Notes: generated from the sequence alone by a model not told the origin. 64,000 nucleotides of DNA from a virus (IMGVR_UViG_3300036975_000017:4499-68498); one strand, 5' to 3'. Counted from the stretch's first letter, positions 10,051 to 30,268 are shown. Made by a program: numbers and translations.

Positions 10051-10103
10051 AGATTAAGAGCATTATTATCTAGCGCGCAAAAAGCGCCACTTAAAAGGTG
10101 TTG

Positions 10104-12654: not shown

Positions 12655-12958
12655 CACAAACAAAGGCGGTATCGCGCAAGTAGCGCGATGGGTATCTAGT
12701 TTACTCGGAAACAATACGAATGATATTGACGCGCTTCAATCTGAGCTTGACGCCGAAGTGGATCGAATTAGCAGTGCCATACCCGGCGCACGAAGCGTTG
12801 ACTCGGAAGCCGCCGGCGCACTGAGTTCGGCACGTAATCGCATATCACACACACGCGTGAGACTGACAGCGCTTCGCAATGACCTGACGGCAGCGCAAGA
12901 GGAGTTATCGGATGCCGAACGTCGCCTGAAGCGCGTTGGGCCAAGCGAGTATAAGTAA
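12647..12958 (+). CDS. Coiled-coil head-region protein
   Basis: Heptad-rich; lies between portal and protease. Confidence 0.6.
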   Translation: MSNTNKGGIAQVARWVSSLLGNNTNDIDALQSELDAEVDRISSAIPGARSVDSEAAGALSSARNRISHTRVRLTALRNDLTAAQEELSDAERRLKRVGPSEYK

Positions 12959-14676: not shown

Positions 14677-14681
14677 GTGAA

Positions 14682-16043
14682 ATGAGTGACACACAAGGTC
14701 ATGAGTTTCTGCTGAAGGCGCAAGGCTTGATGCAAGAGGCGGAGGCGGTTTATGCCGACCCTACCGCAAGCGCTGAAGCTTTTGCCGAGGCAGAAAAGAA
14801 AGTTGAAGAAGTGAAGACGCTCAAGAAACGCGCGTCTCGCCTTATCGAAGCCGGCAAGCTGATGAATGAGCTTAACGGTGAAATTAAACGCACACACAAA
14901 CCCGGCACGCCCAATATGGGTTTCCCGACGCTTGGGCATTTTGTGAGTGCGACGCTTCAAGCCGGTAATATGCGGCGAATGCAGATGAATTTGCCCGTTG
15001 ACCCGCGCTTGATGAAATACGCCTATCGCACCGACAGTAAAGAAACTGAACGCTTCGTCAAGGTTCATCAGCCCGGCGCGGGTGTTGAATCGGGTTGGGG
15101 AACGAAAGACTTGGGCGAAAGCGTGGGCAGCGCGGGCGGTTTCCTCGTACCTGAAGAATTCCTTCCCGACCTGTACGGCGTCGGTTCTGAACGCACAGCC
15201 GTGCGGTCGCGCGCAACTGTTATCCCGATGTCGCGTCGTTCGATCCGCATTCCCGTGCTCGACCAAACCGGCACAAGCAGCAATGCGCCGAATTTCTTCG
15301 GCGGTATTCAACCCGTTTGGACTGAAGAGGCGACATCGAAAGACGAAACCGATCCGTCGTTCCGGCAAATCGAATTGGTGGCGCACAAACTGACCTGCTA
15401 TACCGAAGTTTCCGACGAACTGGTGGAAGACGCGGTGATTTCGTTCGACGCCTTCCTACGCGGCCCGTTGGGTTTCGCAGGGGCAATCGCATGGACCGAA
15501 GAATACGCCTTCTTGCAGGGAACCGGCACGGGGCAACCGCTTGGCGTTTTGAACGCGGGTGCAACGATTACGGTCAACCGGCAAGCTGATGGTGAATTCC
15601 GACTCGAAGATGCGGCGAATATGCTCGAAAGCTTCTTGCCTTCTTCGACGGGTAACGCCGTATGGATGATGTCGCAGTCAGCAATGTCTGAGCTTATCAC
15701 GATGAACGGACCCGCCGGCAACCCGTCTTACGTCTTCGTGGCGAACGCAAGCGCTGCCGCACCGATGACGCTGCTCGGATACCCGATCATCTTTACCGAA
15801 AAGCTTCCGGTGCAAGGTTCGACCGGCGATGTGCTTTTGGCGGATTGGTCGTACTACCTCATCGGCGACCGCAAAGAGGTCACAATCGAATCGACCAACG
15901 TCTATAAGTTCCAGACTGACCAAACGTCCTGGCGTGCGGTTCACCGCGTAGACGGGCAACCGTGGCTCTCACAGCCCTTGACCCTGGCGGACGGCACGAG
16001 CCAAGTTTCGCCGTTTGTCATCTTGGGTGAGAAGGCGAGCTAA
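14682..16043 (+). CDS. Major capsid protein, HK97 fold
   Basis: N-terminal helical delta-like region, GGFLVPEEF, WTEE..SKDETDPSF, FLQGTGTGQPLG, LLGYPIIFTE, ADWSYY, RAVHRVDG. Confidence 0.93.
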   Translation: MSDTQGHEFLLKAQGLMQEAEAVYADPTASAEAFAEAEKKVEEVKTLKKRASRLIEAGKLMNELNGEIKRTHKPGTPNMGFPTLGHFVSATLQAGNMRRMQMNLPVDPRLMKYAYRTDSKETERFVKVHQPGAGVESGWGTKDLGESVGSAGGFLVPEEFLPDLYGVGSERTAVRSRATVIPMSRRSIRIPVLDQTGTSSNAPNFFGGIQPVWTEEATSKDETDPSFRQIELVAHKLTCYTEVSDELVEDAVISFDAFLRGPLGFAGAIAWTEEYAFLQGTGTGQPLGVLNAGATITVNRQADGEFRLEDAANMLESFLPSSTGNAVWMMSQSAMSELITMNGPAGNPSYVFVANASAAAPMTLLGYPIIFTEKLPVQGSTGDVLLADWSYYLIGDRKEVTIESTNVYKFQTDQTSWRAVHRVDGQPWLSQPLTLADGTSQVSPFVILGEKAS

Positions 16044-16057
16044 GGAGGATATGAATA

Positions 16058-16507
16058 ATGGCTTACACAAACCGATTTAGCGAAGTCCACGAACCGATTG
16101 CGTACTTCCAACCTGGACAGCGCAACCCGCAGACCGAAGCATCGGCGTGGATCAATGTAGAAAACTATCATCGCCTCGTGGCGGTGGTACAGGCCGGCGC
16201 GATGGATGCCGGTGCAACCTTCGCCGTGACGATCCGCGAGGCGACCGACGCCGCAGGTACGAACGCCGGGACAATCACCGGTAAAACCGTCACCTTGACG
16301 CAGGCGGGCGGCGACGCCAACCAAGCGCCTACGGTTATCGAAGTGCGCGGCGAAGAATTCAGCAACAACGGTTCGCTGAAATACAACTTCGTGCAGTTAC
16401 AGGGCGTGACCGCCGTCAACAACGTCAACTACTCGATCATCCTGTACGGCATTTGCAAGCGCTATGTGCCCGTTGCAACGTCTTCGTGGAACTCTATCAC
16501 CGATTAG
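16058..16507 (+). CDS. Putative capsid accessory/decoration protein
   Basis: 149-aa beta-rich ORF with AGGAGG SD immediately after the MCP. Confidence 0.55.
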   Translation: MAYTNRFSEVHEPIAYFQPGQRNPQTEASAWINVENYHRLVAVVQAGAMDAGATFAVTIREATDAAGTNAGTITGKTVTLTQAGGDANQAPTVIEVRGEEFSNNGSLKYNFVQLQGVTAVNNVNYSIILYGICKRYVPVATSSWNSITD

Positions 16508-16561: not shown

Positions 16562-17197
16562 ATGCCATATCTTATCCTCACCAGCACTCAATACGTTGTG
16601 CATAATGGCAAGACGATTAGGCTTAAGCCGGGGGATGGTTTTAATCTCAAAAGCAATCAAGTTGCTAAAGAGTGGCTTGAGAAGGGCTTAGCGGAGCTTC
16701 CTCCTAAATACCACGGTGGGCTAGAATCTGTTTATGAGTCCGGTATCGTCGTAAAGGGTGACACTAGCGCACTTCCCCCTGAAGTAGATCGCGCGGTATC
16801 GTTTAGCGGCAACTATCTACAATTTGAATTTACTTGCTTTTGGGATCAATCAGAACTCCCCGCACTGCGTACCGATTTACTCCCCGTCGGCTTCAATCTA
16901 CTCAAAACGTGGCAGCTTGCTATACCGCTTTATGACTATGACGTGCTGGCATGTGACATTGCTGGCGACGAACTAAAGGCGATAATCCGGGACCTGCGCG
17001 TACCACTCTACGACCCGCGCTTTTTCTTTGTGCGACGCTGCGACGATACCCGTGCATTGCTGTCGCGTTATGACGAGTTGTGTGCCGAGCAAGATAGCCG
17101 CGTGGCGATGCTACAAGCAATCTATGAACACAAGCCTTTACTAAGCGCACTTCCGACAACCTGGACGTGCGGAAGGGATGTTATAGGTGAGTTATAA
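16562..17197 (+). CDS. Small N-terminal domain plus degenerate GT-A-like domain
   Basis: C-terminal part aligns by eye with the GT-A proteins at 17546 and 18828 but lacks the LDADT motif. Confidence 0.5.
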   Translation: MPYLILTSTQYVVHNGKTIRLKPGDGFNLKSNQVAKEWLEKGLAELPPKYHGGLESVYESGIVVKGDTSALPPEVDRAVSFSGNYLQFEFTCFWDQSELPALRTDLLPVGFNLLKTWQLAIPLYDYDVLACDIAGDELKAIIRDLRVPLYDPRFFFVRRCDDTRALLSRYDELCAEQDSRVAMLQAIYEHKPLLSALPTTWTCGRDVIGEL

Positions 17198-17549
17198 ACT
17201 TGATAAAATATGCGATGCGTTGGGGACATGGGAGTACGAAATACGATGCCCTGTATGTAAACTTGATTTAATGGCGAGAGATTTTGAGCGCTTCTTTTGC
17301 AAATGTCCCAACGGTTGCACGGAAAGCGATGCCGAAGCCTACAAATCGGTTCCCAATACATGGACACTAGAAGTTATTTCAGGTTTTCTTGAGGCGCTTA
17401 CGAATAAAGGCTTTAAATGGCAGTTATCGCACGATGGTAGCGAGTTTATCATGTGCATAGAGCGCGATGGCCGTAAAACAGAAATTCAGGATTATTATCT
17501 TCGAGACGCTATTCTTTTTGCCATCGGGGAAGCTGTTGATAAAGAATGA
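17187..17549 (+). CDS. Hypothetical protein (Cys-rich, possible Zn ribbon)
   Basis: CPVC...CKCPNGC. Confidence 0.55.
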   Translation: MSYKLDKICDALGTWEYEIRCPVCKLDLMARDFERFFCKCPNGCTESDAEAYKSVPNTWTLEVISGFLEALTNKGFKWQLSHDGSEFIMCIERDGRKTEIQDYYLRDAILFAIGEAVDKE

Positions 17550-18154
17550 GCACGAAAGGGGTAGTATACATTGCCATCGGCGACAAAGCCAAGCGCGAAC
17601 TTAAGCAATCTCAGCACTCCCTAACCCGTAGTAATCCCACGCTTGACGTTTGCGTTTGGTCTGAGCAACAAATCGCCGACTATTCCCCGGTGCAACTTTC
17701 CCGCTACGCAAAAATGACACTGCTCGACTGGTCACCCTTTGAACACACGCTGTACCTTGACGCCGACACGCGCGTATTTCGAGACCTGACCCCCGGTTTT
17801 GAAATACTGCGCGACGGCTTTGATTTAGTGATTGCGCCTTCATCGCAGCAGGGCAGCGACTTTCTTTGGCATATCGACGATGAAGACCGTGCGGCGACGA
17901 TTGAGGCACTACATACTAACGAAGTGCTACAGTTACAAGCCGGCGTGTTTTTTGTGGCGCGTAACGCGCGTACTAAACATTTTTTCAACGTGTGGTATAA
18001 TGAGTGGAAACGGTTTAAGGATCAGGATCAGGGCGCTTTGTTACGCGCCTTACAGCTTGCGCCGCTGAAGATATGGCTACTGGGGCGGTTGTGGAATGAC
18101 AATCGACGCGGCAAAGGCGCGGTGATTGAACATTGGTTCGGGAGGGCGCGGTAA
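17546..18154 (+). CDS. Glycosyltransferase, GT-A fold (GT8/nucleotide-diphospho-sugar transferase-like)
   Basis: GVVYIAIG, TLYLDADT (DxD), QAGVFF, DQGALLRAL, WN. Confidence 0.8.
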   Translation: MSTKGVVYIAIGDKAKRELKQSQHSLTRSNPTLDVCVWSEQQIADYSPVQLSRYAKMTLLDWSPFEHTLYLDADTRVFRDLTPGFEILRDGFDLVIAPSSQQGSDFLWHIDDEDRAATIEALHTNEVLQLQAGVFFVARNARTKHFFNVWYNEWKRFKDQDQGALLRALQLAPLKIWLLGRLWNDNRRGKGAVIEHWFGRAR

Positions 18155-18405
18155 TGGCAAAGATGGAAAATATCGAAGTTGAGGTATACACAAAAGATTT
18201 CATCCTGGTTGAAACAAATGGGAGTATGGCCCTATGGCGAATTGATGAAATACAATCAATATGGGCAAGCGAAGGCGGCTTAATGTTTGGGGTGCGCTTC
18301 ATTGATGGGCACGAAGAAGAATTTAGCTTTCGTAATATCGAAACACCCTATGAAATATTAAGCGATATAGTGGCGGCGCTTGAAAACCGCGTTGTTGTTC
18401 CATGA
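18154..18405 (+). CDS. Hypothetical protein
   Basis: TAATG-coupled ORF. Confidence 0.5.
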   Translation: MAKMENIEVEVYTKDFILVETNGSMALWRIDEIQSIWASEGGLMFGVRFIDGHEEEFSFRNIETPYEILSDIVAALENRVVVP

Positions 18406-18635
18406 ACTTCCTACTTAGACTGCTGAGGCGCTTTATGAAAAAAGTGTACTTTATCGAAATCGGCAATGACCAATACGCGATTAACCTGCGCGCCGTTGAG
18501 ACGGTGTTTTTCAACGACACAGCACAACAGACAACAATCATCACGTCTAACAATAGCGTGGTGGTCACAGACGACGGCACGCTGTTTAAGGACATATCGG
18601 CACAGGTGCAAGCGGTAGCGGAGGAAAAGCAATGA
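18402..18635 (+). CDS. Hypothetical protein
   Basis: YAINLRAVETV pattern; coupled. Confidence 0.5.
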   Translation: MNFLLRLLRRFMKKVYFIEIGNDQYAINLRAVETVFFNDTAQQTTIITSNNSVVVTDDGTLFKDISAQVQAVAEEKQ

Positions 18636-18823
18636 CTGAGTTTGAAGAACTGCTTTGCGAAAAGCTGGGTATTGACCCGGCGCAGACAAAAGAGGTTATC
18701 CTTACCGTGCGTGCTGGTGAACCGCTTATACATGTTAGTGTGAATATGGCGATATACGATGACGACGAACTAAGTGAAGCCTTTGAAAGGTTTAGGTTCG
18801 AGGTAGTGAAAGAAAGCGAGTAG
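18632..18823 (+). CDS. Hypothetical protein
   Basis: ATGA-coupled small acidic ORF. Confidence 0.55.
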   Translation: MTEFEELLCEKLGIDPAQTKEVILTVRAGEPLIHVSVNMAIYDDDELSEAFERFRFEVVKESE

Positions 18824-18827
18824 CGTA

Positions 18828-20429
18828 ATGCACGTCCACGTTATCTGTCGCGACACCGGGCACGTCATTCCCCGCCTTGCAAAATCGCTTATAGCATCAT
18901 CGGCGGGGCGCTGGACGATAGGCGAGACGCCGAACCCGACCGCGCATATTAATTACTTTTTCCCCTACCTTGAACTTGAGCGCTTCCCCGACTTCGATGA
19001 GACGCCCACCGCCGCCTACTTCTCACACTACGAAAAAGACAACGATCACAAAACGCGCGTATGGAACCAGTTCAAAGACCGCGTTGACATCCCGATTGTC
19101 ACGGCGCAGCTTTACGCCAAGCACTTTACCAACGCAACACTTGCGCGCCCAGCTATTGATCCGCAGTTTGTGCCAGCGCGCAAGCGCCCAGCAACTCGCA
19201 GTGTTGGCGTAAGCGGCGTGATTGCCAAGTCGTCGAAACGCAAGGGTGAGCACTTGGTATACCGCGCAGCCAAAGACGCGGATTTGTCGATTAGTCTGCG
19301 CGCGTCCGGCAAGGGTTGGCGCGAAATACCTCAGCAGTTCTATGCATGGCAGCATATGTCAAGCTTCTTTCAATCGCTAGACGTGTTTTTATGTACGTCA
19401 AGTATCGAAGGCGTGCCGATGACGACACTTGAGGCGATGGCCTGCGGCGTGCCGTGTGTCGTTCCCGCTGGCGTTGGCTTGCATGACGAGCTTGGGGATA
19501 TTGCTGGCCTATACCGCTATCGCGCAGGCGATTATGATGACATGAAGCGGGTGCTATTGAAAGCGCTAGAATTTGACGGCAGCAACGAATCGCTGGTAGA
19601 AAAAGCGCGTGAATACAGCGCGCACAATTGGTTTATGGATCACCAGCGCGCGTTCGAGCAATATTTGTACAATGTACCACAACCCGCGCTACACGCGCCC
19701 TGGAACGAAAACAACGCGGGCTTGTATGTTGTAGCGTTTGGGGAGAACGCGCGTAACTGTGCAAGGCTTTGCATCCAGTCATTCAAAAAGCACATGTCAC
19801 TCCCCGCTGCGCTAGTGTCTGATAGCCCGCTAGGATGTGAAGATATATTCATTGAGCGTGATGATACCGACATCGGAGCACGCGGTGCAAAGCTGAGCGT
19901 TGAAACATTAGCGCCAGCGGAATGGGACTATGTACTCTATCTTGACGCCGACACCGAAGTCACCGCGCCTATTGGCTTTTTATTTGACGCTCTGGCAGAC
20001 GGGTGGGAGTTCGTCATTTGTAAGAATCCTGTTCGTTACCACGTGGCGTTTAACATGGTGCGACCGGACTACATCGAAGAATGCGAAGAAACGTTTAAGT
20101 TCATTGGCACAGATGAAGCCATTCAACTAAACGGCGGCGTGTGGGCGTATCGTCGCACCGAGCAAGCGCGTAAGTTGATGCTTGATTGGTACAATGAGTG
20201 GAACCGCTACGGTGCACGAGATCAGGCGGCGCTATTGCGGGCACATAAAAAATACCCGGTACGTACATATGTACTGGGTAATGAGTGGAACACAGTAGAT
20301 CGTTATCAGAAATGGTATGCACACGAGACGGCGGGTATCATGCACTACCCGATGACGGCCCGGCGATGGGAAGGGCGAATTGATGGACGGTTGGATAGCC
20401 GGCAGGCGTGGAGCAAGGTGAAGCGTTAA
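18828..20429 (+). CDS. Bifunctional glycosyltransferase (GT4-like GT-B plus GT-A)
   Basis: LDVFLCTSSIEGVPMTTLEAMACGVPCV (GT4 ExxxxxxxE) followed by VLYLDADT...DQAALLRA. Confidence 0.88.
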   Translation: MHVHVICRDTGHVIPRLAKSLIASSAGRWTIGETPNPTAHINYFFPYLELERFPDFDETPTAAYFSHYEKDNDHKTRVWNQFKDRVDIPIVTAQLYAKHFTNATLARPAIDPQFVPARKRPATRSVGVSGVIAKSSKRKGEHLVYRAAKDADLSISLRASGKGWREIPQQFYAWQHMSSFFQSLDVFLCTSSIEGVPMTTLEAMACGVPCVVPAGVGLHDELGDIAGLYRYRAGDYDDMKRVLLKALEFDGSNESLVEKAREYSAHNWFMDHQRAFEQYLYNVPQPALHAPWNENNAGLYVVAFGENARNCARLCIQSFKKHMSLPAALVSDSPLGCEDIFIERDDTDIGARGAKLSVETLAPAEWDYVLYLDADTEVTAPIGFLFDALADGWEFVICKNPVRYHVAFNMVRPDYIEECEETFKFIGTDEAIQLNGGVWAYRRTEQARKLMLDWYNEWNRYGARDQAALLRAHKKYPVRTYVLGNEWNTVDRYQKWYAHETAGIMHYPMTARRWEGRIDGRLDSRQAWSKVKR

Positions 20430-20653
20430 TGACTATAAGTATATTAATAGCGTCGGCGATCTCAATGTGCGGATTAATGATCCTGGATTTCACAAGAGGT
20501 GAAGATGTTAGTCCATTGACCGGATTCATGATCATTGCCGCCATGTCGTATTGTGTACAATATGTTGGCATCGCGGAAACGCTCTTTTTGATTTGTCCGT
20601 TTTTGATAACGATACTGTATGACAGGACAGCAAAGAAGCGTGGAATAAGGTGA
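20429..20653 (+). CDS. Small membrane protein
   Basis: Two to three hydrophobic helices. Confidence 0.5.
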   Translation: MTISILIASAISMCGLMILDFTRGEDVSPLTGFMIIAAMSYCVQYVGIAETLFLICPFLITILYDRTAKKRGIR

Positions 20654-20657
20654 AGAA

Positions 20658-20930
20658 ATGAATCATCACAAGAATACAGTCAGATACAAGCAGGGCGTGT
20701 TTTTTTCTTGCGTGGGAGCGGTTGTGAACTATCATGCATTTGTCTTTCCTGTCAACCATGAAACCTATTATGTTCTTACGTATCTACGAAACGACAAAAT
20801 GGTAACATATGCGGGCAAGATTGATTCAGAAATGATAGAAGACGACAATGAGCGGTATGACATGACGCACGCCTTTTTTGCTGGTGGCATTTTCTTAGAT
20901 AATGAGCATGCGCTCTCAGGCATGGAGTAA
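20658..20930 (+). CDS. Hypothetical protein
   Basis: ORF with AAGGTG SD. Confidence 0.5.
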   Translation: MNHHKNTVRYKQGVFFSCVGAVVNYHAFVFPVNHETYYVLTYLRNDKMVTYAGKIDSEMIEDDNERYDMTHAFFAGGIFLDNEHALSGME

Positions 20931-20939
20931 GGTGAAGAA

Positions 20940-21197
20940 ATGAAGTTCTTTATTTATAAAACACACTCAGACAAATTACCTAATTTACCCAACGGTGAAC
21001 CTAAAACATTAAACGGCTATGATGGCGCTATCGTTAGTCTAGAATCGCTCGATGATTTAATCGCACTCATTGACGACCGCGAGTGGTTTTATAAGACGGC
21101 GACTTACATTAGCGGTTTAATTGTTCGATTGCCCGGAAGTGGAAGTGTAAGTGATGAACACGCAAGCATTGAAATTTATAATGATTTTAGAGAATGA
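20940..21197 (+). CDS. Hypothetical protein
   Basis: Ends IEIYNDFRE; SD present. Confidence 0.55.
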   Translation: MKFFIYKTHSDKLPNLPNGEPKTLNGYDGAIVSLESLDDLIALIDDREWFYKTATYISGLIVRLPGSGSVSDEHASIEIYNDFRE

Positions 21198-21213
21198 AAC
21201 GAAAGGATAACTA

Positions 21214-21447
21214 ATGGAACCGATAGTAGTTGGGTATTTGTGCATTGGTGTTTTTATAGTGGGGTTTTCGCTTACGGCGAATTGGGATAAATTTCTAAAA
21301 GACGTTGTGAAAAATGGCGTTCTTTCAATGCTTTTGAGTATCGCGTTTATGGGGGTGCTTGTTTCGGTTTTGTGGTTGCCCGGCGCTTTAATATTGGCAT
21401 TCCGAGAATATGCAAAACGAAAGGTTAATGAGAATGAATCCCCTTAA
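21214..21447 (+). CDS. Small membrane protein
   Basis: Two TM helices. Confidence 0.5.
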   Translation: MEPIVVGYLCIGVFIVGFSLTANWDKFLKDVVKNGVLSMLLSIAFMGVLVSVLWLPGALILAFREYAKRKVNENESP

Positions 21448-22336
21448 AGTCGCTCTCATTATAAAAAACAGCGACGCGCCAAAACAGCGCGAAAATCGCA
21501 ACATGGGGTACTTTTCCTACCCTGTTGATGAGTTTGAATGGCAACACTTTTGGTTTCCGAAAAATGCCACGGTTGACCTAAACGATTTTCGGGAGTTTGA
21601 CCTCGTGTTTCACGAAGACACGACCAACGGCGCGCAGTACAAGCGGCTGGGTACTGTACCGCTCGTTTTTCTGGACATTGACAGCACGCTAAGCGAAGTA
21701 CACTTACACAAGCGCCGCATTCTTGGCTATCAGGCTGATTTGATTTTGGTAGACCACGCACCGCTTGAAAACTTCTCGGAGGGGCGCGGCAAAGTGCGCC
21801 GCCTGGGGTATTGTGTCAATGATCTTGTGTTCAAAGACTATGGACTGAGCAAGAGCGTAGACCTGTCGTTTCATTGCAGTACGGGCGGCAGCAAGAACCA
21901 TCCCGGCGCTAAGGAGCGCAAGGCGATTAGGGCATTACTAGATACCTACGCTATGCAAAAAACGCTTAGGTATCGCTCTGGCGTGTTGGGGCTGCAAGAT
22001 TACGCGCGGGCGTTCAATGAATCTAAGGTTTGCGTCAATTGGCCGCGTACCCGCATTAATCGCCCGCACCGCGTGTTTGATGTCATGGCAGCGCGTTCGT
22101 GCCTATTGACCGGCAAGATACCAGCGGTTGACGGTGACGGACTGGAAGCGGGTGTACACTATATTGAGTTTGGCAACCAGCGCGATATGATTGAACGCCT
22201 CGATTGGCTTTTTGAAGACGGCGAGCGCATAGAACAAATCACCAACGCCGGGCATCAGCACGTAATGAATAATCACACATGGCGACATTGCGCGAAGCGG
22301 TTGCGAAAGATTTTAAGTGAGGAGCTAGGGATATGA
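21434..22336 (+). CDS. Glycosyltransferase (CgeB/Glyco_trans_1_2-like)
   Basis: YARAFNESKVCVN...RVFDVMAARSCLLT...GHQHVMNNHTWRH. Confidence 0.8.
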   Translation: MNPLKVALIIKNSDAPKQRENRNMGYFSYPVDEFEWQHFWFPKNATVDLNDFREFDLVFHEDTTNGAQYKRLGTVPLVFLDIDSTLSEVHLHKRRILGYQADLILVDHAPLENFSEGRGKVRRLGYCVNDLVFKDYGLSKSVDLSFHCSTGGSKNHPGAKERKAIRALLDTYAMQKTLRYRSGVLGLQDYARAFNESKVCVNWPRTRINRPHRVFDVMAARSCLLTGKIPAVDGDGLEAGVHYIEFGNQRDMIERLDWLFEDGERIEQITNAGHQHVMNNHTWRHCAKRLRKILSEELGI

Positions 22337-22554
22337 ATAAAAAACACGAGGTAATGCAAGTATTCATGGATGAATACGGCATAACACAAAGGGGTATGGA
22401 TGAATTTGGGATTTCCCCAAAATACGACAGCGAGAGAGATTATTGGTATTTTGATGGGGCTGATATGTACCGCGCGTCTATATGGGCGATGATTAACGCT
22501 GGTGGCGCTGGCAATATATTACCAATGCTTTTAAGCGGGGAATTGGAGCCATGA
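22333..22554 (+). CDS. Hypothetical protein
   Basis: ATGA-coupled. Confidence 0.5.
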   Translation: MNKKHEVMQVFMDEYGITQRGMDEFGISPKYDSERDYWYFDGADMYRASIWAMINAGGAGNILPMLLSGELEP

Positions 22555-22763
22555 GCGACACCAAACAGGACGACAGCCGAGATTTTGTTGCAGAGATTTG
22601 CGCGCTTGCTGAACAAAGCCTACAAGAAAAAAAGAGAATAGCGCAGATATTCAAACGCATGGGTATAACAAGCGGGGTGGACGTAATAGAGTTAAGGATG
22701 TATTCTGATGGAGAAATTATACTAGACACCTTAATCCCCGTCGAGGACGAAAATGAATCTTAG
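22551..22763 (+). CDS. Hypothetical protein
   Basis: ATGA-coupled. Confidence 0.5.
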   Translation: MSDTKQDDSRDFVAEICALAEQSLQEKKRIAQIFKRMGITSGVDVIELRMYSDGEIILDTLIPVEDENES

Positions 22764-23472
22764 AACCATTGTATTCACCTCAGACGATTACCTACATTGT
22801 CTCCCCGGTTTTGCCTATTTGCACAACAAGCATATTGGCGAAAGCCAAGAGGCGGTTGTCGTATGTTTCAAAAAGGGGCGCTCGAAACTACCCGACAATT
22901 TCACCAAGCACAGCCTCGGTAAGCAGCAAGACTTCACGTGGTCGAGCGCCGCGATTGAATTCCTGTCAAGTATCGACGACCCGCTTGTCTTGCTGATGCT
23001 CGAAGACTATTTCTTACAGCACGCCGATATGGGCAAAATCAAAGCGTTGCGGGATTACATGCTCGCTTATCCCGGTATTGGCAAAATTGATCTGACGAAC
23101 GACCGGCTTAAAGTGGCGCACAAGCCCCACGGTACGTGGCGCGGGGGCATGAAGATCATTCGCAGCGCGCATAATGCATCGTACACCTTTAGTCTACAGG
23201 CAGCGCTATGGCGACGTGAATTTCTACTCAAGTACCTTGACGCCGAAGAGGACCCCTGGCAAATGGAGAAGGGCGCAAGCCGGCGCTTTGCTGATGAGGC
23301 TGGGCGCGGGCGTGACAAGTCTATTATCCTGGGGTGCGAAGTACCGCCGATGGAATATGTCAATGCAATAGGAGGAGAAGGAAACAAGCCGCGCGTTTGG
23401 GACCGCGTGAAGTTTCCGCTTGATTTGTGGACTGAGTTGGCTGAATTGGGCTATGTTGAGGATGAAGAATGA
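22753..23472 (+). CDS. Putative glycosyltransferase (GT-A-like)
   Basis: VFTSDDY...LLMLEDYFL...SLQAALWRREFL...EDPWQME pattern typical of GT2-like glycan proteins. Confidence 0.6.
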   Translation: MNLRTIVFTSDDYLHCLPGFAYLHNKHIGESQEAVVVCFKKGRSKLPDNFTKHSLGKQQDFTWSSAAIEFLSSIDDPLVLLMLEDYFLQHADMGKIKALRDYMLAYPGIGKIDLTNDRLKVAHKPHGTWRGGMKIIRSAHNASYTFSLQAALWRREFLLKYLDAEEDPWQMEKGASRRFADEAGRGRDKSIILGCEVPPMEYVNAIGGEGNKPRVWDRVKFPLDLWTELAELGYVEDEE

Positions 23473-23765
23473 ACCAAGAAGTCATTAGTGAAAATATTCC
23501 CCGCGAACCGAGCGTAGATGAAATTCGCAAGGTTCAAATTGAAAAACTCATTGGTTTTGTTCGACAAATATGCCTAAGCCTTGAAGGTATTATGAACGAT
23601 CACGGAGGCGACTGGTTCGAGGAGGTAGTCGAACCGCGCCGGGGAAGCGAAAGTGCAACGGGCCTAAAAGTTGCACGTGGATTGTTGGTTGTATATGCCA
23701 TCAAGCATTTGCGAGAGGCGGGGCTATATCTAGAGTCGTTGTTGTCGGTGGAGGATAAAGAATGA
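23469..23765 (+). CDS. Hypothetical protein
   Basis: ATGA-coupled. Confidence 0.5.
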   Translation: MNQEVISENIPREPSVDEIRKVQIEKLIGFVRQICLSLEGIMNDHGGDWFEEVVEPRRGSESATGLKVARGLLVVYAIKHLREAGLYLESLLSVEDKE

Positions 23766-24016
23766 GCAACACGAATAATCCAGAAGACATCAAACGACTA
23801 AAGTCTGTGCTTGACATTGATCGTGCTATCATCCGCATTGTAGAACGCGGTTATTACGCCGGTGGTGGACTAGAAGATAACGATTGTTTCTTTTGTAGCG
23901 CGTGGAGCACCGAAGACCATACCGAAGATTGCCCATTCATTGTGTTAAAGAAATACATTGAAAACAGGGGGATGCCCTGCAACGGGGATGAGACGGGAAA
24001 GGAACCGGAAGAATGA
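23762..24016 (+). CDS. Hypothetical protein (Cys/His motif)
   Basis: CFFC...H.EDCP. Confidence 0.5.
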   Translation: MSNTNNPEDIKRLKSVLDIDRAIIRIVERGYYAGGGLEDNDCFFCSAWSTEDHTEDCPFIVLKKYIENRGMPCNGDETGKEPEE

Positions 24017-24402
24017 TTAAAAGGTTGATTGTAATTGTTTTAGCTTTTATCAGGGTGCTGCGGGGGCACGGCGCGCAAGAATCAGCACCCTGCGAAGAGG
24101 GCGATTGGGTCAAGCTGCATCCGTTTTTTGAAGAATGGCCCGATGGTATGGCGTTGTATACAATACCGTGGGGAATTGATAAATACAATGATCGATACTA
24201 TATACATTCAAGTCTTTTGCTTGATAGCGCAACCTACACATCCCCCGGAATGACATCAGAGTTCCCGATTATGAAATTCGGAAAAAGACTATTTACGGAT
24301 GATTCATCTATAAGCCATCTTGATAACGCCGACACGCTTCAAGGCTTGGAAGACGGCTTTATTGAAGTATTTCCCCTACGTTTTTTGTCGGAGCGACCAT
24401 GA
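24013..24402 (+). CDS. Hypothetical protein
   Basis: ATGA-coupled. Confidence 0.5.
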   Translation: MIKRLIVIVLAFIRVLRGHGAQESAPCEEGDWVKLHPFFEEWPDGMALYTIPWGIDKYNDRYYIHSSLLLDSATYTSPGMTSEFPIMKFGKRLFTDDSSISHLDNADTLQGLEDGFIEVFPLRFLSERP

Positions 24403-24728
24403 CACCCTCACAATACGAATGCACAAAATGCAACGCACGCCTTGATACCGCCGCGTCACTTTGCGAAGATTGCCGGGGGGAGTTGAGCGGGAATGAACCT
24501 TCTTTCCCGCGTTTAACGGCATACAACGGATACCCGGAGAGTGCCTTTGACTTAATGAGTCATGAGGATCAATTGTGTTTTGGACAGTTGTCTCACATAG
24601 AACAAAGTGCGTTTGCCATTGCCTTATTGACAGACATATCAAAGACTTTGATGAATAGCGCTCCCCAGGCATCCCACACACAAGCTATGCAAGATTATTT
24701 ATCGGTTTATTTTTCAGAGAGGTATTAA
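24399..24728 (+). CDS. Hypothetical protein (N-terminal Zn finger)
   Basis: CTKC...CEDC. Confidence 0.5.
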   Translation: MTPSQYECTKCNARLDTAASLCEDCRGELSGNEPSFPRLTAYNGYPESAFDLMSHEDQLCFGQLSHIEQSAFAIALLTDISKTLMNSAPQASHTQAMQDYLSVYFSERY

Positions 24729-25304
24729 ATGGGCGGACACATCCCCGAAGCCTTAGCGCTCGCACTGCACGACGCGCATGATATTAAATACGCCATCGAA
24801 ACCGGCACGTACAAGGCGAACACAACGCGCTTCCTCGGTGAGCACTTTGATCGCGTGTGGTCAATTGAGATGGACGAAAACTGGCACAAGCGCGCTATCC
24901 TCGTGCTTAAGAATCAAACCAACGTCACTCTTGTTTTAGGTGATAGTCGCTTTAAGCTGCGCGAAGTTCTACAAGAGCTTGACGGCCCCGCACTTTTATG
25001 GCTTGACGCGCACTGGTGCGGCGGCGCGCGCCCGGAACAAGCACCAGAAGAAGAATGCCCGCTCAGAGAGGAATTGTACGCGATACGCGAGAACGACAAT
25101 TCACACTACATTCTCATTGACGACGCACGGCTTTTCACCGGACGCCCCAACTATCCACACAACCCGGACTTGTGGCCGACATGGGACGGGGGCGTTCAGG
25201 CGTTGCTACCTGAGCGCTACCACACGATCATTCATAATGACGTAATCGTTAGTGTGCCACAGTTGGCGAAAGGAACAGTTGAGACATGGCGATGTACACC
25301 ATAA
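24729..25304 (+). CDS. Class I SAM-dependent methyltransferase (paralog A)
   Basis: IETGT, SIE, GDS, WLDAHW, ILIDDAR. Confidence 0.75.
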   Translation: MGGHIPEALALALHDAHDIKYAIETGTYKANTTRFLGEHFDRVWSIEMDENWHKRAILVLKNQTNVTLVLGDSRFKLREVLQELDGPALLWLDAHWCGGARPEQAPEEECPLREELYAIRENDNSHYILIDDARLFTGRPNYPHNPDLWPTWDGGVQALLPERYHTIIHNDVIVSVPQLAKGTVETWRCTP

Positions 25305-25654
25305 ACGATCTCTATATGACATGTGATACCGCGCCCTCTTCATGGGAGGGTATTACAGATACTGGGCAGTTTGTATATATTCGCTATCGATGGGGCATAC
25401 TTTATGTATACGTGACCCCCTTTGAGCTGCACCGAAAGTTTAAATCAAAGCAAGAAATTGAAAATGCGTTGGAGTGTATCCAAGAAATAAGGTGCGGGGG
25501 TAGCTACGCAAGCGTGATGTCTACCGAATTGATGGTCTTGTATCTACGAGAAACCTTTGGTTTTTATGAAGCAACGATTTGTGATTGCTGGCCTAAAAAA
25601 GACTGTGATTGCAACGTGGAAAAATGGAGCGATTGTGTCTTTACTCATAAATAG
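25286..25654 (+). CDS. Hypothetical protein
   Basis: TC...PSSWEG.TD.G..VYIRYRWG pattern. Confidence 0.55.
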   Translation: MAMYTINDLYMTCDTAPSSWEGITDTGQFVYIRYRWGILYVYVTPFELHRKFKSKQEIENALECIQEIRCGGSYASVMSTELMVLYLRETFGFYEATICDCWPKKDCDCNVEKWSDCVFTHK

Positions 25655-26198
25655 CCCCGCCGTTGCGCTTCGAGATACCTTTGGTATCCGACAAGCGATT
25701 GAAACCGGCACATGGCAGGGCGACGGCACAATCTATCTTGCGCGGCATTTTGAGCGCGTGTGGTCGATTGAAATCGATGACTACTGGTATGATTATTCCT
25801 TTGCCCTAACGCGCATGTACCCACACGTTGATTTAATCAATGGTGATAGCGCGGTAGCATTGCGCGTGTTATTGAACGAACTATACAACCCGGTTCTATT
25901 CTGGCTCGATGCGCATTGGTGCGCCGGCAATGGACAGGTACGGCTTGATGTCGAATGTCCGCTGCTCGATGAGCTTGAAGCAATTGCCGACAGTCAGGTC
26001 GAGCCGTACATTTTGATAGACGACGCGAAGTATTTTGTTGAAGGCGACCCGAACGGAATGCACACGCCTGAGCAATGGCCGTCGCTTGATGAGATTAAGG
26101 CAGCGCTTCCCGATGGGTATTTTACCATTGTGCATAATGACATGATCGTAAGTGTGCCGGAGAAGGCGCGGGAGGTTGTAGAGAAATGGAAAAAATAG
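25635..26198 (+). CDS. Class I SAM-dependent methyltransferase (paralog B)
   Basis: IETGT, SIE, GDS, WLDAHW, ILIDDAK; GTG start with GGAG SD inside ORF 25557-26198. Confidence 0.75.
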   Translation: MSLLINSPAVALRDTFGIRQAIETGTWQGDGTIYLARHFERVWSIEIDDYWYDYSFALTRMYPHVDLINGDSAVALRVLLNELYNPVLFWLDAHWCAGNGQVRLDVECPLLDELEAIADSQVEPYILIDDAKYFVEGDPNGMHTPEQWPSLDEIKAALPDGYFTIVHNDMIVSVPEKAREVVEKWKK

Positions 26199-26563
26199 TC
26201 AGTTTTCATACGGTACAGCGTCGTCAGATGACAAAAATTCTAGCCATCGGTATCGGTGGGGCGCGTATATATATACTCCATAATCATAGCGAATTATCTG
26301 CGTTCGTTGATAGTAACGACAAAGACTTTGAGGAGATTTATTCAGTGTGGTGTACTGATGATATTTCAACGCCCTATGGTTGGCGATTATCACTCAAGAA
26401 AATAAAAAAAACCTTGAGCGGTGTTATCAACTTTGACGGGGCGACAGAGAGCGAGGTCGATTTATGGACACCGAATGATTATGATAGCTGGTGGCACGAA
26501 AAAACCCCCTGGAATATTTTGGGTAGGTCGTGTGCTGGAAAATATAATGATTCACTATCGTAA
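26186..26563 (+). CDS. Hypothetical protein
   Basis: Overlap-coupled. Confidence 0.45.
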   Translation: MEKIVSFHTVQRRQMTKILAIGIGGARIYILHNHSELSAFVDSNDKDFEEIYSVWCTDDISTPYGWRLSLKKIKKTLSGVINFDGATESEVDLWTPNDYDSWWHEKTPWNILGRSCAGKYNDSLS

Positions 26564-27131
26564 ATACGAAAACTACCAACATTACATAAAGCACCAGTGT
26601 GGCAAGGACGCGGTACATACCGGCATGATTGAATATGGTGAAATGCTACAAGCTGCACTTGTTGAACGTTTAAACCCGTGGCGAAAACACGGTGAAGGCA
26701 TGCTTTGCCTGGGTGCTCGTACCGGCGCTGAAGTGGAAGCATTTATGAAAATGGGTTATTTTGCAGTAGGCGTTGACATTAATCCACTACCTAAAAATCC
26801 CTGGGTATTGCTTGGCGACTTCAATGATCTTTTATGGTTCGACGAAACGATTGATAATATTTACACAAACTCATTAGACCACGCCGAAAATCTCACGGAA
26901 TTAAGAAATCAAATCTATCGCAAACTTAAGCCCGGCGGCAAGCTTTTCGTAGACATCGTAGCCGGTATAGAAGAAGGTTACACGCCCGGCGCGTTTGAAT
27001 CGTGCTGGTGGGATAAGGTAGACGATGTAGTTGAACTGTTACACGGCAGTGGATTTAAAGCTATGTCTCGTTCACCGATTACAGAGCCGTGGACTGGTGA
27101 ATTTGTTGTATTTAGAAAGGAATTGAAATGA
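26547..27131 (+). CDS. SAM-dependent methyltransferase-like protein
   Basis: LCLGARTGAEV, GVDI, GDF, YTNSLDH, LKPGG. Confidence 0.75.
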   Translation: MIHYRKYENYQHYIKHQCGKDAVHTGMIEYGEMLQAALVERLNPWRKHGEGMLCLGARTGAEVEAFMKMGYFAVGVDINPLPKNPWVLLGDFNDLLWFDETIDNIYTNSLDHAENLTELRNQIYRKLKPGGKLFVDIVAGIEEGYTPGAFESCWWDKVDDVVELLHGSGFKAMSRSPITEPWTGEFVVFRKELK

Positions 27132-27769
27132 AGCTTAAAGCAGACCACGAAACGATCATAGCGGAAGTTGTCGCACAGTACCCGGAATTCCCCGATATCC
27201 TGAAACAAGTTAAAGAAGGCATTCATTGGTGCAAGGGGCAAATCTCAGACTTTCAAGCGGCGGCGCTTTACGCCTTGACGCGACAGTACGACAAGCCGGG
27301 TCGCGTTATCCTTGAGATTGGCACGGCCTACGGCTTTAGCGCCGCGATTATGGCGAAAGCAGCGCCAGAGGCTCAAATTATCACAATCAATCCTCAATCG
27401 CACGAAGTAAAAGCGGCGGAGTTCGCATTGTGGGAGATGGGCATTGACAACGTAGACGTGCAGCAGTTCAAGTCAACCGACTATTTTTGGGTAGATGCAA
27501 TTCACAAAAAATATGATATGATATTTGTAGACGGGGATCACAAGCGTGTAAGAGAAGATTTCCCCTTCTTCAACAAATTGTCGGATAATGGTTTGTTTTT
27601 GTTTCACGATTATGCTCCATCCGATAGCTGGCGCGCTTGTCCCCCGGTGTTTGAAGCGTTGAATGAGCGCAGTGAAGCTTTCCGAGGCTTTGATGTGCTG
27701 GTATCAGACTTAGAAGGCGTGGCAATCGCCGGATGGTATCGGCGCAAAGGCGAGGCGTGGAAACTATAA
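27128..27769 (+). CDS. Class I SAM-dependent O-methyltransferase (Methyltransf_24-like)
   Basis: LEIGTAYGFS, YDMIFVDGDH, GLFLFHDY. Confidence 0.85.
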   Translation: MKLKADHETIIAEVVAQYPEFPDILKQVKEGIHWCKGQISDFQAAALYALTRQYDKPGRVILEIGTAYGFSAAIMAKAAPEAQIITINPQSHEVKAAEFALWEMGIDNVDVQQFKSTDYFWVDAIHKKYDMIFVDGDHKRVREDFPFFNKLSDNGLFLFHDYAPSDSWRACPPVFEALNERSEAFRGFDVLVSDLEGVAIAGWYRRKGEAWKL

Positions 27770-27915
27770 CGCGCTAGCCAAAACTGAATTACAGTAGCAA
27801 TTAGCTGCCTGCATAGCGCGTAAGCGTACTTGTGTGGGCAGCTATTGTTTTTAAGGTAGATATGGCAACCGAAATCACGCCGGCTTGACCTGGTATAGTA
27901 GAGAGGACTTCATAA

Positions 27916-28059
27916 ATGGCATTACGTGGGTTACTCGGATTGTTTGGATTATCGGGACTTGTGGCGGGCGCTGAAAGCGTGCCAGCAGGCAACTACTTAG
28001 TAGACGCGAGCGGCAACGACTTAGTAGACGCGAGCGGTAATAACCTTGTGTGGGTATAG
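27916..28059 (+). CDS. 47-aa putative virion peptide (absent from the ORF track)
   Basis: MALRGLLGLFGLSGLVAGAESVPAGNYLVDASGNDLVDASGNNLVWV; GAGG SD; tandem LVDASGN. Confidence 0.55.
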   Translation: MALRGLLGLFGLSGLVAGAESVPAGNYLVDASGNDLVDASGNNLVWV

Positions 28060-28067
28060 GTGAGGAT

Positions 28068-28625
28068 ATGGCAGACAAACGAATTGTTGATCTTGACGAA
28101 GCCACCAGCATTACCGGCGATAAATTTATGGTACTTGATAGCGTTGCAGATGACACCGAGAAGGCTACACTCGAAGATGCATTTGAAGCGCTACAGACGC
28201 TCTTTGGTGCATATGGCGCAATTTACACAACGTCAGGCGTGGCGACCCAGGCGCTAACCGCAGCAACGCCGGCGAAACTAACGCTTTTCGATACCGATGG
28301 GTTATCAAATGCCATTACGGTATCGGCAGCCAACGATCAAATGACGATAAACACAGCGGGCGTGTATGAAATTTTGGCAAATTTCAGTATGACGAGTAGC
28401 ATCAACAACGTTATCGTCAGTTTTTATACCGCTGTAGACGGCGTAAGGCAGGAGCCGGGGATTAGCCGAAAAATCGGAACCGGGGCCGATGTTGGTGCGT
28501 GTGGGTTTGGTCCTGTACTACTCAATTTGGCAGCGACAGAAGTTTTAACCGTAGAGGTTGAGGCAACCTTAAACACAAACTTAACCATCATAGACGCGGC
28601 ATTTTCCGCGTTTCGGGTAGGGTAA
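28068..28625 (+). CDS. Putative virion structural protein (short fibre/decoration; jelly-roll-like C-terminus)
   Basis: MADKRIVDL.EATS start and a beta-rich C-terminus (AGVYEI). Confidence 0.55.
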   Translation: MADKRIVDLDEATSITGDKFMVLDSVADDTEKATLEDAFEALQTLFGAYGAIYTTSGVATQALTAATPAKLTLFDTDGLSNAITVSAANDQMTINTAGVYEILANFSMTSSINNVIVSFYTAVDGVRQEPGISRKIGTGADVGACGFGPVLLNLAATEVLTVEVEATLNTNLTIIDAAFSAFRVG

Positions 28626-28627
28626 AC

Positions 28628-28972
28628 ATGAGCACGAATAGACCTATCGCATCGGCGAACAACGTAAGCGCGCCGGCGGCAAACACGGCGGCAACCGTTA
28701 CCGCCACGGGGCAAGACAACCAATACATTATCTTTCAGGTAATCATGTGGTCGTATAACGGCGCGCCAACGGGCGGCAACATTTCAGCCGTTACGACAGG
28801 CGGCGCAACGATTCTTGATTGGGACATTACGACAAGCGGGCCGGGCTTTGTGCCCATCCCCGAAAAAGGATTGCAAAGCCCCTCGCCGGGTGAAGCGGTA
28901 ACGATCACACTCACGGCAGGCGGGGCAACAGTATCGGGCAAGCTCAACGCTTACTGGATTTACGGTACATAA
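28628..28972 (+). CDS. Putative virion structural protein
   Basis: Ala/Thr/Gly-rich, located before the head-tail connector. Confidence 0.55.
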   Translation: MSTNRPIASANNVSAPAANTAATVTATGQDNQYIIFQVIMWSYNGAPTGGNISAVTTGGATILDWDITTSGPGFVPIPEKGLQSPSPGEAVTITLTAGGATVSGKLNAYWIYGT

Positions 28973-28975: not shown

Positions 28976-29710
28976 ATGGGTAACGCTGACACAACATACT
29001 GCACACTCGCCGAGCTACGCAATCAAATCTACAAGAAAGGCACGACGAAAAGCCCTGACACCGATGCCAATTTGACGCTTATTATCACTGCCGTTTCGCG
29101 TGGCATCGATCAGTTCACCGGAAAAGAAGCGGGGTATTGGGAAGCTGACACTTCGGCAAGTGCGCGTTATTTTTCCGGCTCTGGCAATTCGGTACAGTGG
29201 ATCGATCAATGTATCGAAGTGGAAGCCGTCGCCGTAAAAGACAGCGCAACCGACGATGAGGACAGTTACACGGCATGGACCGTGGGCACAGTCGGCACGA
29301 CAACCGATGCGGACGTATTTCCCGCGAGCGGTGATCCGAAGTACCCGAATTACAATGCGCTACCTTACAATTTTCTACTAGTTAACGTCAACGGGAGTTA
29401 CGCCGAATTTCCTTCCGGGCGCTTTACGAGCCTAAGCGGTTTTAGACCGGAGCACGAATCTAAGCACGGTCTGCCAACGGTTAAAGTCACGGCGAAGTGG
29501 GGGCGAAGCGCAACGGTGCTTTATTCCATTAAGCAGGCGTGTATTGTCGAAAGCGCGCGGATGTACAAGCGCGGTGAGGGTGTTTGGGCCGACGCGATTG
29601 CAAATGTCGAAACCGGCGAACTACGCTTTGTTTCCGGCTTTGACCCGGCAACGCTAAGGATGCTTGACCGGCTGAGCACGCCGTCTATTGGATGGACGGG
29701 CGGCGGGTAA
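28976..29710 (+). CDS. Head-tail connector/adaptor (gp6/gp15-like)
   Basis: YCTLAELR...LIITAVSRGIDQFTG...VKVTAKWG...IKQACI. Confidence 0.75.
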   Translation: MGNADTTYCTLAELRNQIYKKGTTKSPDTDANLTLIITAVSRGIDQFTGKEAGYWEADTSASARYFSGSGNSVQWIDQCIEVEAVAVKDSATDDEDSYTAWTVGTVGTTTDADVFPASGDPKYPNYNALPYNFLLVNVNGSYAEFPSGRFTSLSGFRPEHESKHGLPTVKVTAKWGRSATVLYSIKQACIVESARMYKRGEGVWADAIANVETGELRFVSGFDPATLRMLDRLSTPSIGWTGGG

Positions 29711-29711: not shown

Positions 29712-29740
29712 TTGACATAGCTTTATTATTCGTTTATAAT
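29712..29740 (+). promoter_or_regulatory. Perfect-consensus sigma70 promoter of the tail operon
   Basis: TTGACA-17 bp-TATAAT. Confidence 0.85.
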
Positions 29741-29787
29741 GCTAGGTAATATGTAGAGCGCCACGGAGCGCCTGGAAAAAGGTGTAT

Positions 29788-29815
29788 AACGCCCACGGGG
29801 GCGTTTTTTTGTTTT
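29788..29815 (+). terminator. Leader terminator-like hairpin (copy 2)
   Basis: AACGCCC-acgg-GGGCGTT plus T-tract. Confidence 0.65.
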
Positions 29816-30268
29816 ATGGACATCATTGTAAAGGGCTTCGACGAAACCGAAGAAGACTTAGACCGGATGCAACGCGAGTTAACCGGCTCACCGATGCTTA
29901 ACGCCATGCGCGACGCGGCGATGCTGGTGACACGCGACGCAAAGCGTTTAGCGCCGGTCGATACCGGCAGGTTACGCGCGTCGATTACGCCGGATGTACG
30001 TAAGGTGTCGTCAGGCTTTGAGGGTGTTGTCGGCTCAAATGTAGTCTATGCGCCCTATGTCGAAACGGGTACACGCCCGCACTGGCCGCCACAGGGCGCG
30101 CTTGCAACGTGGGCGCGCCGCCACGGATGGAAAGAGGCTGATATACGGTTTGTCATTGGTACACGGGGTACGCGTGCGCAACCTTATCTTGTGCCCGCGT
30201 TCGTCGATAACGCCGACAAGATTATACGTATTTTAGAGCGCGGCGTCAGTAAGGTTATTGAGGATTAG
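29816..30268 (+). CDS. HK97 gp10-like neck/tail-completion protein
   Basis: APVDTGRLRASI, YAPYVETGT, AQPYLVPA. Confidence 0.85.
   Translation: MDIIVKGFDETEEDLDRMQRELTGSPMLNAMRDAAMLVTRDAKRLAPVDTGRLRASITPDVRKVSSGFEGVVGSNVVYAPYVETGTRPHWPPQGALATWARRHGWKEADIRFVIGTRGTRAQPYLVPAFVDNADKIIRILERGVSKVIED

Follow-up and report, generated by a model that had tools for sequence, protein, structure and literature searches.

The stretch of viral DNA analysed here, which we call the window, comprises 64,000 nucleotides (IMGVR_UViG_3300036975_000017:4499-68498) taken from one contig of 68,498 bp, where it runs from base 4499 to the end; the GC content is about 0.50, and the genome is that of an uncultured phage of siphophage type. 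Positions are those of the window unless stated otherwise. Between its genes for the major capsid protein (MCP) and the head-tail adaptor lies a block of about 11 kb (16562-27769) that encodes six glycosyltransferase (GT) domains and four class I S-adenosylmethionine (SAM) methyltransferases, and which we examine as a candidate system for glycosylation of the phage particle. The original prediction had counted at least five GT domains and four SAM methyltransferases: all of these are found where they had been placed or only a few codons away, and the sixth GT domain is a degenerate GT-A enzyme at 16562, which lies inside the range then outlined and had gone undescribed.

The block belongs to the head operon. 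On its upstream side lie, all on the + strand, the genes for the portal (10132-12654) and the protease/scaffold (12958-14676), both recognised with PHROGs, the MCP gene (14673-16043; phrog_10, E 5.8e-58), whose product ends in ..GEKAS, and g16058 (16058-16507; phrog_28483), which encodes a 149-aa head-module protein. The adaptor gene (28976-29710, + strand; phrog_442, E 8.8e-8) is the last of the operon, and beyond it follow Neck1 (29816-30268), the major tail (tube) protein (31116-31568, + strand; phrog_10528, E 2.7e-5), which ends in ..GTIGS, and the tape measure (32225-35509); TerL is encoded at 5649-7058. Two copies of a promoter-leader-hairpin unit, both on the + strand and identical in 80% of their aligned columns, mark the 5' and 3' boundaries of this one operon. 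The first (10022-10134) precedes the portal gene and the second (29712-29818), which carries a perfect sigma-70 consensus (TTGACA-17-TATAAT), precedes the Neck1 gene; in each the T-run ends at the start codon. The interval from MCP to adaptor holds about 26 tightly packed open reading frames (ORFs), all on the + strand, and within it no + strand terminator-like site with a T-rich tail (at least five T in eight) was found; at 14924 and 25849 the scan lists weaker + strand stems. The earlier claim that the genes are co-oriented in a late operon between capsid and connector is thus borne out.

The signature gene of the module (18828-20429, + strand) encodes a bifunctional fusion of a GT4 enzyme with a GT8-like GT-A enzyme, referred to below as the fused GT. 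Its N-terminal domain matches Glycos_transf_1 in Pfam (E 3.6e-10; 40.1 bits against a cutoff of 26.4), and both the EX7E motif (E194, E202) and the DXD motif of the second domain (D373, D375) are invariant in 30 homologues. The C-terminal GT-A domain is a paralogue (hhalign E 3.7e-48) of the neighbouring GT8-like GT-A enzyme encoded at 17546-18154 (+ strand). This latter protein matches the Pfam families Nucleotid_trans (E 2.8e-4; 21.4 against a cutoff of 22) and GT8 (E 2.3e-3; 18 against 24.3), its DXD (D72, D74) is intact and invariant in 25 homologues, and its family profile matches glycogenin (E 0.0026) and the Skp1 galactosyltransferase, the matches ranging from E 0.0026 to 0.04; some GT8-like GT-A homologues carry PF03407 or PF01501. 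Both assignments agree with what had been read from the sequence beforehand, namely a GT4 plus GT-A protein at 18828 and a GT-A protein at 17546. A sample of relatives was chosen from IMG/VR by the fused GT; such relatives occur in 243 contigs, of which the best 80 loci are those meant by "the 80 loci" below. All 80 are matched by the 17546 query, a count that is inflated because the fused GT, through its own paralogous GT-A domain, is matched as well (139 matches in the 80 loci). Over-long matches to the fused GT in some loci were considered as inteins and rejected, the extra stretch being the adjoining GT-A gene. In four loci from metagenome-assembled genomes (MAGs), L094-L097, the matches to the GT4 half and to the GT-A half stand apart from each other, and in L095 a match to a methyltransferase like that at 27128 lies between them; gene fission or fusion within the family may account for the split.

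The third core protein is the degenerate GT-A enzyme encoded at 16562-17197 (+ strand), which carries an N-terminal beta domain of about 52 aa. Its profile aligns with the 17546 family at an hhalign probability of 98.5% (E 1.8e-15), the DXD columns not being conserved. The AlphaFold2 model has a predicted local distance difference test score (pLDDT) of 84.5, and when residues 55-211 were compared structurally with VIA, nearly all of the top 50 matches were GT-A or related nucleotidyltransferase-fold enzymes. The best of these score Z 8.2-7.5 and include A64R of PBCV-1 (2p6w, Z 7.9), while GlyE (5gvv) follows at Z 7.0 and A197 of STIV at Z 6.4. For the assignment as a GT-A paralogue, the profile homology is the stronger evidence, as a structural Z of about 8 is middling on its own. 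Sequence-only searches of the PDB with 16562, with the GT-A enzyme at 22753 and with g16058 returned nothing useful, and structure prediction was therefore needed. The N-terminal domain shows no similarity to g16058 (hhalign probability 0.1%). A 16562-like gene, present in 69 of the 80 loci, universally accompanies the fused GT; we hypothesise that it has a substrate-docking or regulatory role.

Two further glycosyltransferases, both on the + strand, lie downstream of this core. The first, which had been predicted as a CgeB-like enzyme starting at 21434, was found as 21410-22336 and matches Glyco_trans_1_2 (Pfam, E 3.4e-12), a GT-B C-terminal domain; it is accessory, with homologues in 30 of the 80 loci. 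The second, at 22753-23472, has no match in Pfam, and the earlier suggestion of a GT-A-like protein finds its backing in structure: the AlphaFold2 model (pLDDT 95.8) has a GT-A fold, Foldseek aligns it at E values down to 1.6e-6 with KfiA, SpsA, TarS, WrtF and RmlT (383 matches at E<=0.001), and the pair E84-D85 is invariant or nearly so in its alignment. None of the glycosyltransferases or methyltransferases of the block has a predicted membrane helix; the only ORFs of the block with two transmembrane helices are two small, non-conserved ones (20408 and 21214). Since the assignments rest on significant profile or structure matches, these elements are not chance patterns.

Synteny across relatives, a check that the original prediction had named, was examined in two samples chosen in different ways. 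Those of the 80 loci that are long enough to show it begin with portal, protease and MCP, continue with g16058, a 16562-like gene, a 17546-like gene and the fused GT, and pass through a variable part to adaptor and tail. Among 15 MAG loci examined, nine have this first arrangement and six a second. By tblastn, the fused GT is preceded, at a distance of 1.7-4.8 kb, by a recognisable MCP in 31 of the 37 GT-selected loci for which at least 5 kb of upstream sequence is available. The remaining six belong to a divergent subfamily. In one of them, L065, PHROGs identify TerL, portal, protease and MCP, and the fused GT begins 3 nt after the MCP, followed by a 192-aa ORF, a 16562-like gene and the adaptor; this implies that the minimal conserved pair consists of the fused GT and the degenerate GT-A protein. 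The second IMG/VR sample was chosen by MCP homology alone, a relative of this protein being encoded in 467 contigs, of which the best 80 were retained; in all 39 of these loci with at least 5.5 kb of sequence downstream of the MCP, the fused GT lies downstream of it.

Among metagenome proteins, 609 scored homologues of the fused GT reach E<=0.001, whereas tblastn found no match to it in 50,697 GenBank phage records. Megablast with pieces of 10-30 kb likewise found no close GenBank phage relatives, and MCP matches there are at most 39% identical. Cultured phages with a homologous MCP and no such GT (Bradyrhizobium ppBdUSDA122-1, Ralstonia YO103_6, Caulobacter W2, Streptomyces Dagobah, Clostridium CWou-2020b and an Oscillospirales phage) pass directly from the capsid region to the neck genes, g16058 also being present in two of them. 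Set against the fixed position of the block in the lineage studied here, these GT-less homologues imply that the block is a lineage-defining insertion in a conserved head module. As to the hosts, full-length MAG relatives fall mostly in Chloroflexota (Anaerolineae and Dehalococcoidia), with mis-binning possible for the other bins, and the hosts are on this basis probably Chloroflexota. In L096, a copy of the module of the divergent subfamily (subfamily 2) sits on a 198,535-bp Caldilineaceae MAG contig, far beyond phage genome size, which suggests an integrated prophage in a Chloroflexota host.

In mycobacteriophages, glycans have been located at the C-termini of capsid and tail-tube subunits (PMC12619734; also PMC11600133, PMC13445384), and it is for this reason that C-termini were compared here. 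The counts that follow are of distinct C-termini among related sequences, and the underlying events are not phylogenetically independent. All 46 distinct MCP C-termini in the GT-selected loci end in Ser or Thr (for instance ..GAKST and ..GVGGS), the preceding residues being variable, and so do all 45 in the MCP-selected sample; the tail-tube proteins do so in 10 of 11 cases in the GT-selected loci. In the divergent subfamily, whose MCP is about 17% identical to the window type in alignment, Ser is the last residue of all 18 MCPs and of all 8 tail-tube proteins, mostly as ..GS. The control proteins of the GT-selected loci rarely end in Ser or Thr (g16058 in 5 of 44, adaptor in 1 of 20, Neck1 in 1 of 17, g30271 in 1 of 16), the adaptor of the divergent subfamily never does (0 of 11), and neither do the GT-less homologous MCPs (0 of 6), which all end in R or A. 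The same kind of tail occurs in the proven systems: in Che8, the MCP gp6 ends in ..KTGS and the major tail protein gp11 in ..SDGS, and in Corndog the MCP gp41 ends in ..LVGS and gp49 in ..KGDS. Because such tails are shared by two distant MCP clades that have the GTs, are not a feature of outgroups or controls and resemble those of the proven systems, the C-terminal Ser/Thr residues of capsid and tail-tube proteins are likely acceptors of an O-linked glycan, as far as sequence comparison can indicate. The protein g16058, which always follows the window's type of MCP, was also considered as a module-specific acceptor and rejected: gene and Thr/Gly-rich loop are both kept in the GT-less Bradyrhizobium and Ralstonia phages, and its C-terminus seldom carries Ser or Thr.

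These two lines of evidence also bear on the question of whether the enzymes instead remodel a polymer of the host envelope, such as an S-layer glycan, a wall polysaccharide or a capsule, be it as a block to superinfection, for instance, or as a help in release. Families such as GT4, GT2 and GT8, together with hypervariable islands of nucleotide-sugar genes, are indeed typical of surface-polysaccharide loci. However, no membrane-bound GT was found, and none of the ORFs scanned matched a family of initiating phosphoglycosyl transferases, flippases or polymerases; the place of the genes between capsid and adaptor, within the late head operon, is moreover the same in all relatives whose sequence reaches far enough, and a role in the envelope would leave the Ser/Thr tails of capsid and tail tube unexplained. 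We therefore regard remodelling of the host envelope as improbable.

The four methyltransferases are encoded, all on the + strand, at 24729-25304, 25557-26198 (likely start 25635), 26421-27131 (likely start 26547) and 27128-27769. The last is the best defined by Pfam, as a member of O-methyltransferase family 3/Methyltransf_24 (E 4.9e-11; 43.9 bits against a cutoff of 26.3, and 29.6 against 22), and its family profile matches O-methyltransferases of the PDB with the class I SAM fold at E 2e-16; homologues occur in 24 of the 80 loci, and the protein shares a Pfam family with gp35 of Corndog. The enzyme at 26421 matches Methyltransf_11 (E 1.5e-6) and has no counterpart in the 80 loci. The proteins at 24729 and 25557, paralogues with 47% identity, have no Pfam match, the Methyltransf_21 hidden Markov model included. 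Their family profile matches class I methyltransferases (E 7e-5), and an ESM Atlas model of the 24729 family resembles an FkbM cluster (TM 0.84) and a domain of 822-aa bacterial GT2 proteins (TM 0.90). In three relatives a 24729-like methyltransferase is fused to a GT-A domain like that of 22753 (L008:12534-13859, L045:11492-12757 and L040:13827-16076), as it also is in homologues of about 411 aa, and the L040 fusion adds a GT2 domain to give a protein of 749 aa. Such fusions tie the methyltransferases to glycan synthesis.

What these enzymes methylate is nevertheless a fair question, since the particle proteins could be glycosylated while the four methyltransferases act on proteins or some other substrate. 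Both 27128 and 24729 weakly match protein isoaspartate O-methyltransferases, and methylation of a tail protein matters in one mycobacteriophage (PMC13445384). Against this, the best profile matches of 27128, at the E value given above, are to the small-molecule or sugar-type O-methyltransferases of family 3, both relatives and bacteria have proteins in which a domain like 24729 is joined to one of GT-A or GT2 type, and methyltransferases of the sugar O-methylating TylF and FkbM families occur in the islands of relatives and in Corndog. There is also a viral precedent in A064R of PBCV-1, an enzyme with two GT domains and a methyltransferase domain that acts on a capsid glycan (PMC7826918). We thus consider methylation of something other than sugars unlikely. 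O-methylation of the glycan is plausible, given the family 3 and FkbM-like enzymes of the block, TylF in the relatives and the TylF-type O-methyltransferase of the Corndog cassette.

The donor sugars themselves may be tailored by the phage. As had been predicted, an NAD-dependent nucleotide-sugar epimerase/dehydratase is encoded upstream (8058-9152, + strand; Pfam Epimerase E 8.8e-59, GDP_Man_Dehyd E 7e-52), and is likely a donor-sugar tailoring enzyme; in the window it lies outside the block, whereas its homologues in relatives lie within the GT block. The variable part that follows the core in relatives contains, besides homologues of 8058, 21410, 22753, 24729 and 27128, further GT2 enzymes, FkbM and TylF methyltransferases, a UDP-glucose dehydrogenase and a DegT/DnrJ/EryC1 aminotransferase. 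At five places in these islands (L040:11269-12815, L008:6721-8328, L019:15344-16678, L005:17178-18320 and L014:11142-13766) we noted transketolase-like pairs that are split, a radical SAM enzyme with B12 binding, an aminotransferase of the DegT type and a fusion of UDP-glucose dehydrogenase with an epimerase. The enzymes of these islands imply that branched, amino and uronic sugars are made. The deoxysugar pathways of secondary metabolism also typically include enzymes of the TylF, DegT and transketolase types, so that the module might instead make a free or secreted glycoconjugate, be it natural-product-like or a decoy glycan, with no relation to the particle. The block shows no aglycone or export genes, though, and both its strict position in the head module and the acceptor tails favour virion proteins; a free product is accordingly very unlikely.

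The nearest experimental parallel is that of the mycobacteriophages Che8, Corndog and Myrna, whose virion O-glycosylation was reported by Freeman et al. 2023, as cited in PMC11600133, PMC12363180, PMC12619734 and PMC13445384. In the Corndog type, an O-methyltransferase and three GTs modify capsid and tail tube (PMC11600133); the TylF/Methyltransf_24 O-methyltransferase gp35 and the GTs gp36-38 sit between portal gp34 and protease gp39, inside the head module. The window's cassette too lies inside a head module, and the block likewise combines phage GTs that have no predicted membrane helices with an O-methyltransferase, while capsid and tail-tube proteins end in Ser as do those of Che8 and Corndog (..GS or ..DS there). 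The enzymes, on the other hand, are not homologous to gp35-38 (no BLASTP match at E<0.1; hhalign probabilities of 3.3%, 0.2% and 0.1%), which makes this an analogous system built from different parts and not a member of the Corndog gene family. Further differences from the mycobacteriophages are the composition of the core, a GT4::GT8-like fusion with a GT8-like GT-A and a degenerate GT-A protein, the much larger block with its six GT domains and four methyltransferases in about 11 kb, and a GC content of about 50% with hosts that are probably Chloroflexota as opposed to Actinobacteria.

Two other systems offer parallels of a looser kind. The protein A064R of PBCV-1 has two rhamnosyltransferase domains and a methyltransferase domain, and the major capsid protein of this virus bears a methylated glycan (PMC7826918). 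As with A064R and A111/114R, virus-encoded multidomain GTs and methyltransferases are combined in the window, and the A64R GT-A structure is among the best matches of 16562, but the likeness is one of fold only, at the middling Z of about 8, and PBCV-1 differs in having a eukaryotic algal host, atypical N-glycans on its capsid and genes that do not lie in a head operon. Bacterial serine-rich-repeat adhesins are modified in the cytoplasm by a GT4 enzyme with a non-catalytic GT-like partner (GtfA/GtfB), after which GT8 and GT2 extenders such as GlyE lengthen the O-glycan on Ser/Thr. The window's GT4 enzyme with its non-catalytic GT-like partner and GT8-type enzymes is similar by description; unlike in the adhesin system, the non-catalytic partner has a GT-A and not a GT-B fold, and the acceptor would be a short C-terminal tail instead of long repeats.

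Phage glycosyltransferases may also act on DNA, where glycosylated, hypermodified bases evade restriction, and some GTs of phages build multi-sugar glycans on DNA (Pyle et al. 2024, cited in PMC12619734). The present genome encodes ThyX, a dCTP deaminase-like gene product and DNA methylases, which would suit such a role. Yet a ThyA-type hydroxymethylase was not found among the Pfam-scanned ORFs, a set drawn from those of at least 150 aa beyond the genome's initial 4.5 kb; the genes sit in the head operon and not in the replication module, known DNA glycosylation does not feature amino-sugar, branched-sugar and O-methyl tailoring enzymes such as the relatives have, and the correlation with the acceptor tails would go unexplained. 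The chance that DNA is the substrate is, in our judgement, slight indeed. As for the rest of the genome, it encodes, besides ThyX and the dCTP deaminase-like product, a transporter resembling Vut_1/YhhQ, an actin resembling ParM, a fusion of a helicase with an N6/N4 DNA methylase, and an ORF starting with an FxGxG motif, which looks like a C5 cytosine methylase; all these are distributed over window positions 3695-4351, 54238-54951, 58291-58809 and 45728-46843 and genome bases 2395-3621. No integrase was found among the ORFs scanned.

Taken together, we think it probable that the block is a phage-encoded system for O-glycosylation of the virion with methylated sugars, expressed with the head genes. 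That the virion is the target had previously been proposed from gene position, and the proposal now gains support from three independent lines: from the fixed synteny, from the lack of membrane machinery in the scanned ORFs and from the C-terminal Ser/Thr of capsid and tail-tube proteins. Several points weigh on the other side. The evidence comes from genes, and it is from these that we infer the existence of the glycan, its acceptor residues, its linkage and the methyl groups on its sugars. The GT4, GT8 and GT2 families also build polysaccharides, the Pfam scores of 17546 fall just under the curated cutoffs, and the enzymes are not homologous to the proven ones of mycobacteriophages. The Ser/Thr tails are very short (1-4 residues), their counts come from related sequences as opposed to independent events, and the tail-tube sample is small (11 and 8). 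The substrates of the methyltransferases cannot be read from sequence, O-methyltransferase family 3 acts on small molecules as well, and there are the weak matches to protein isoaspartate methyltransferases.

On the virion-glycosylation reading, the core of 16562, 17546 and 18828 would work in the cytoplasm of the infected cell, where it would attach and extend a glycan at the last residue, Ser or Thr, of the MCP and of the tail-tube protein, with the degenerate GT-A protein 16562 probably docking or regulating the active enzymes. The accessory enzymes, that is, the GT at 21410, the GT-A enzyme at 22753, the four SAM methyltransferases and the epimerase at 8058, would then extend and cap this glycan, the methyltransferases being expected to add O-methyl groups. 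As the accessory set differs from phage to phage in the manner of an O-antigen locus, the virion glycan is expected to vary as well. We speculate further, and more tentatively, that the lineage, which by capsid homology spans at least 467 IMG/VR contigs and probably infects Chloroflexota, possesses a "tag-and-writer" system independent of that of the mycobacteriophages: a Ser/Thr tail of 1-4 residues might be read by the dead GT-A protein, which recruits the GT4::GT8-like enzyme, and the glycan might then be diversified by the hypervariable island. This more specific scheme is possible, though we would not put it at even odds.

The block and its flanks contain a number of smaller features. The block has many small ORFs, which find no counterpart in the relatives sampled apart from single matches for three of them. 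Between 16562 and 17546 lies a Cys-rich, zinc-ribbon-like ORF of 120 aa (17187-17549), which is missing from the closest relative, L001, where the counterparts of the two genes abut; further small Cys-rich ORFs occur, for example, at 23762 and 24399. The sole sizeable gap is one of 280 bp (27770-28050), with an AGCTGCC...GGCAGCT stem followed by a T-run and a 44-codon ORF, beginning at 27916, for a peptide with a hydrophobic start and a repeated LVDASGN motif. Between the methyltransferases and the adaptor (28050-28972), a 191-aa gene with a weak BclA_C/minor-tail match and a 114-aa gene with 22% Ser+Thr have no counterpart in relatives by tblastn, and may encode a head fibre or decoration protein.

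In the literature found, virion glycosylation of tailed phages is described for no more than a few mycobacteriophages, in which it changes antibody recognition. Here, a candidate glycosylation module has a constant place in the head operon throughout a large environmental lineage, with unrelated enzymes and the same acceptor signature on capsid and tail tube. The three-protein core is a tractable candidate for defined glycosylation of protein C-termini in vitro. If the reading is true, sugar coats on virions would be widespread and would have arisen more than once, and the particles of these phages would bear a variable glycan layer that could affect their adsorption, stability and recognition.

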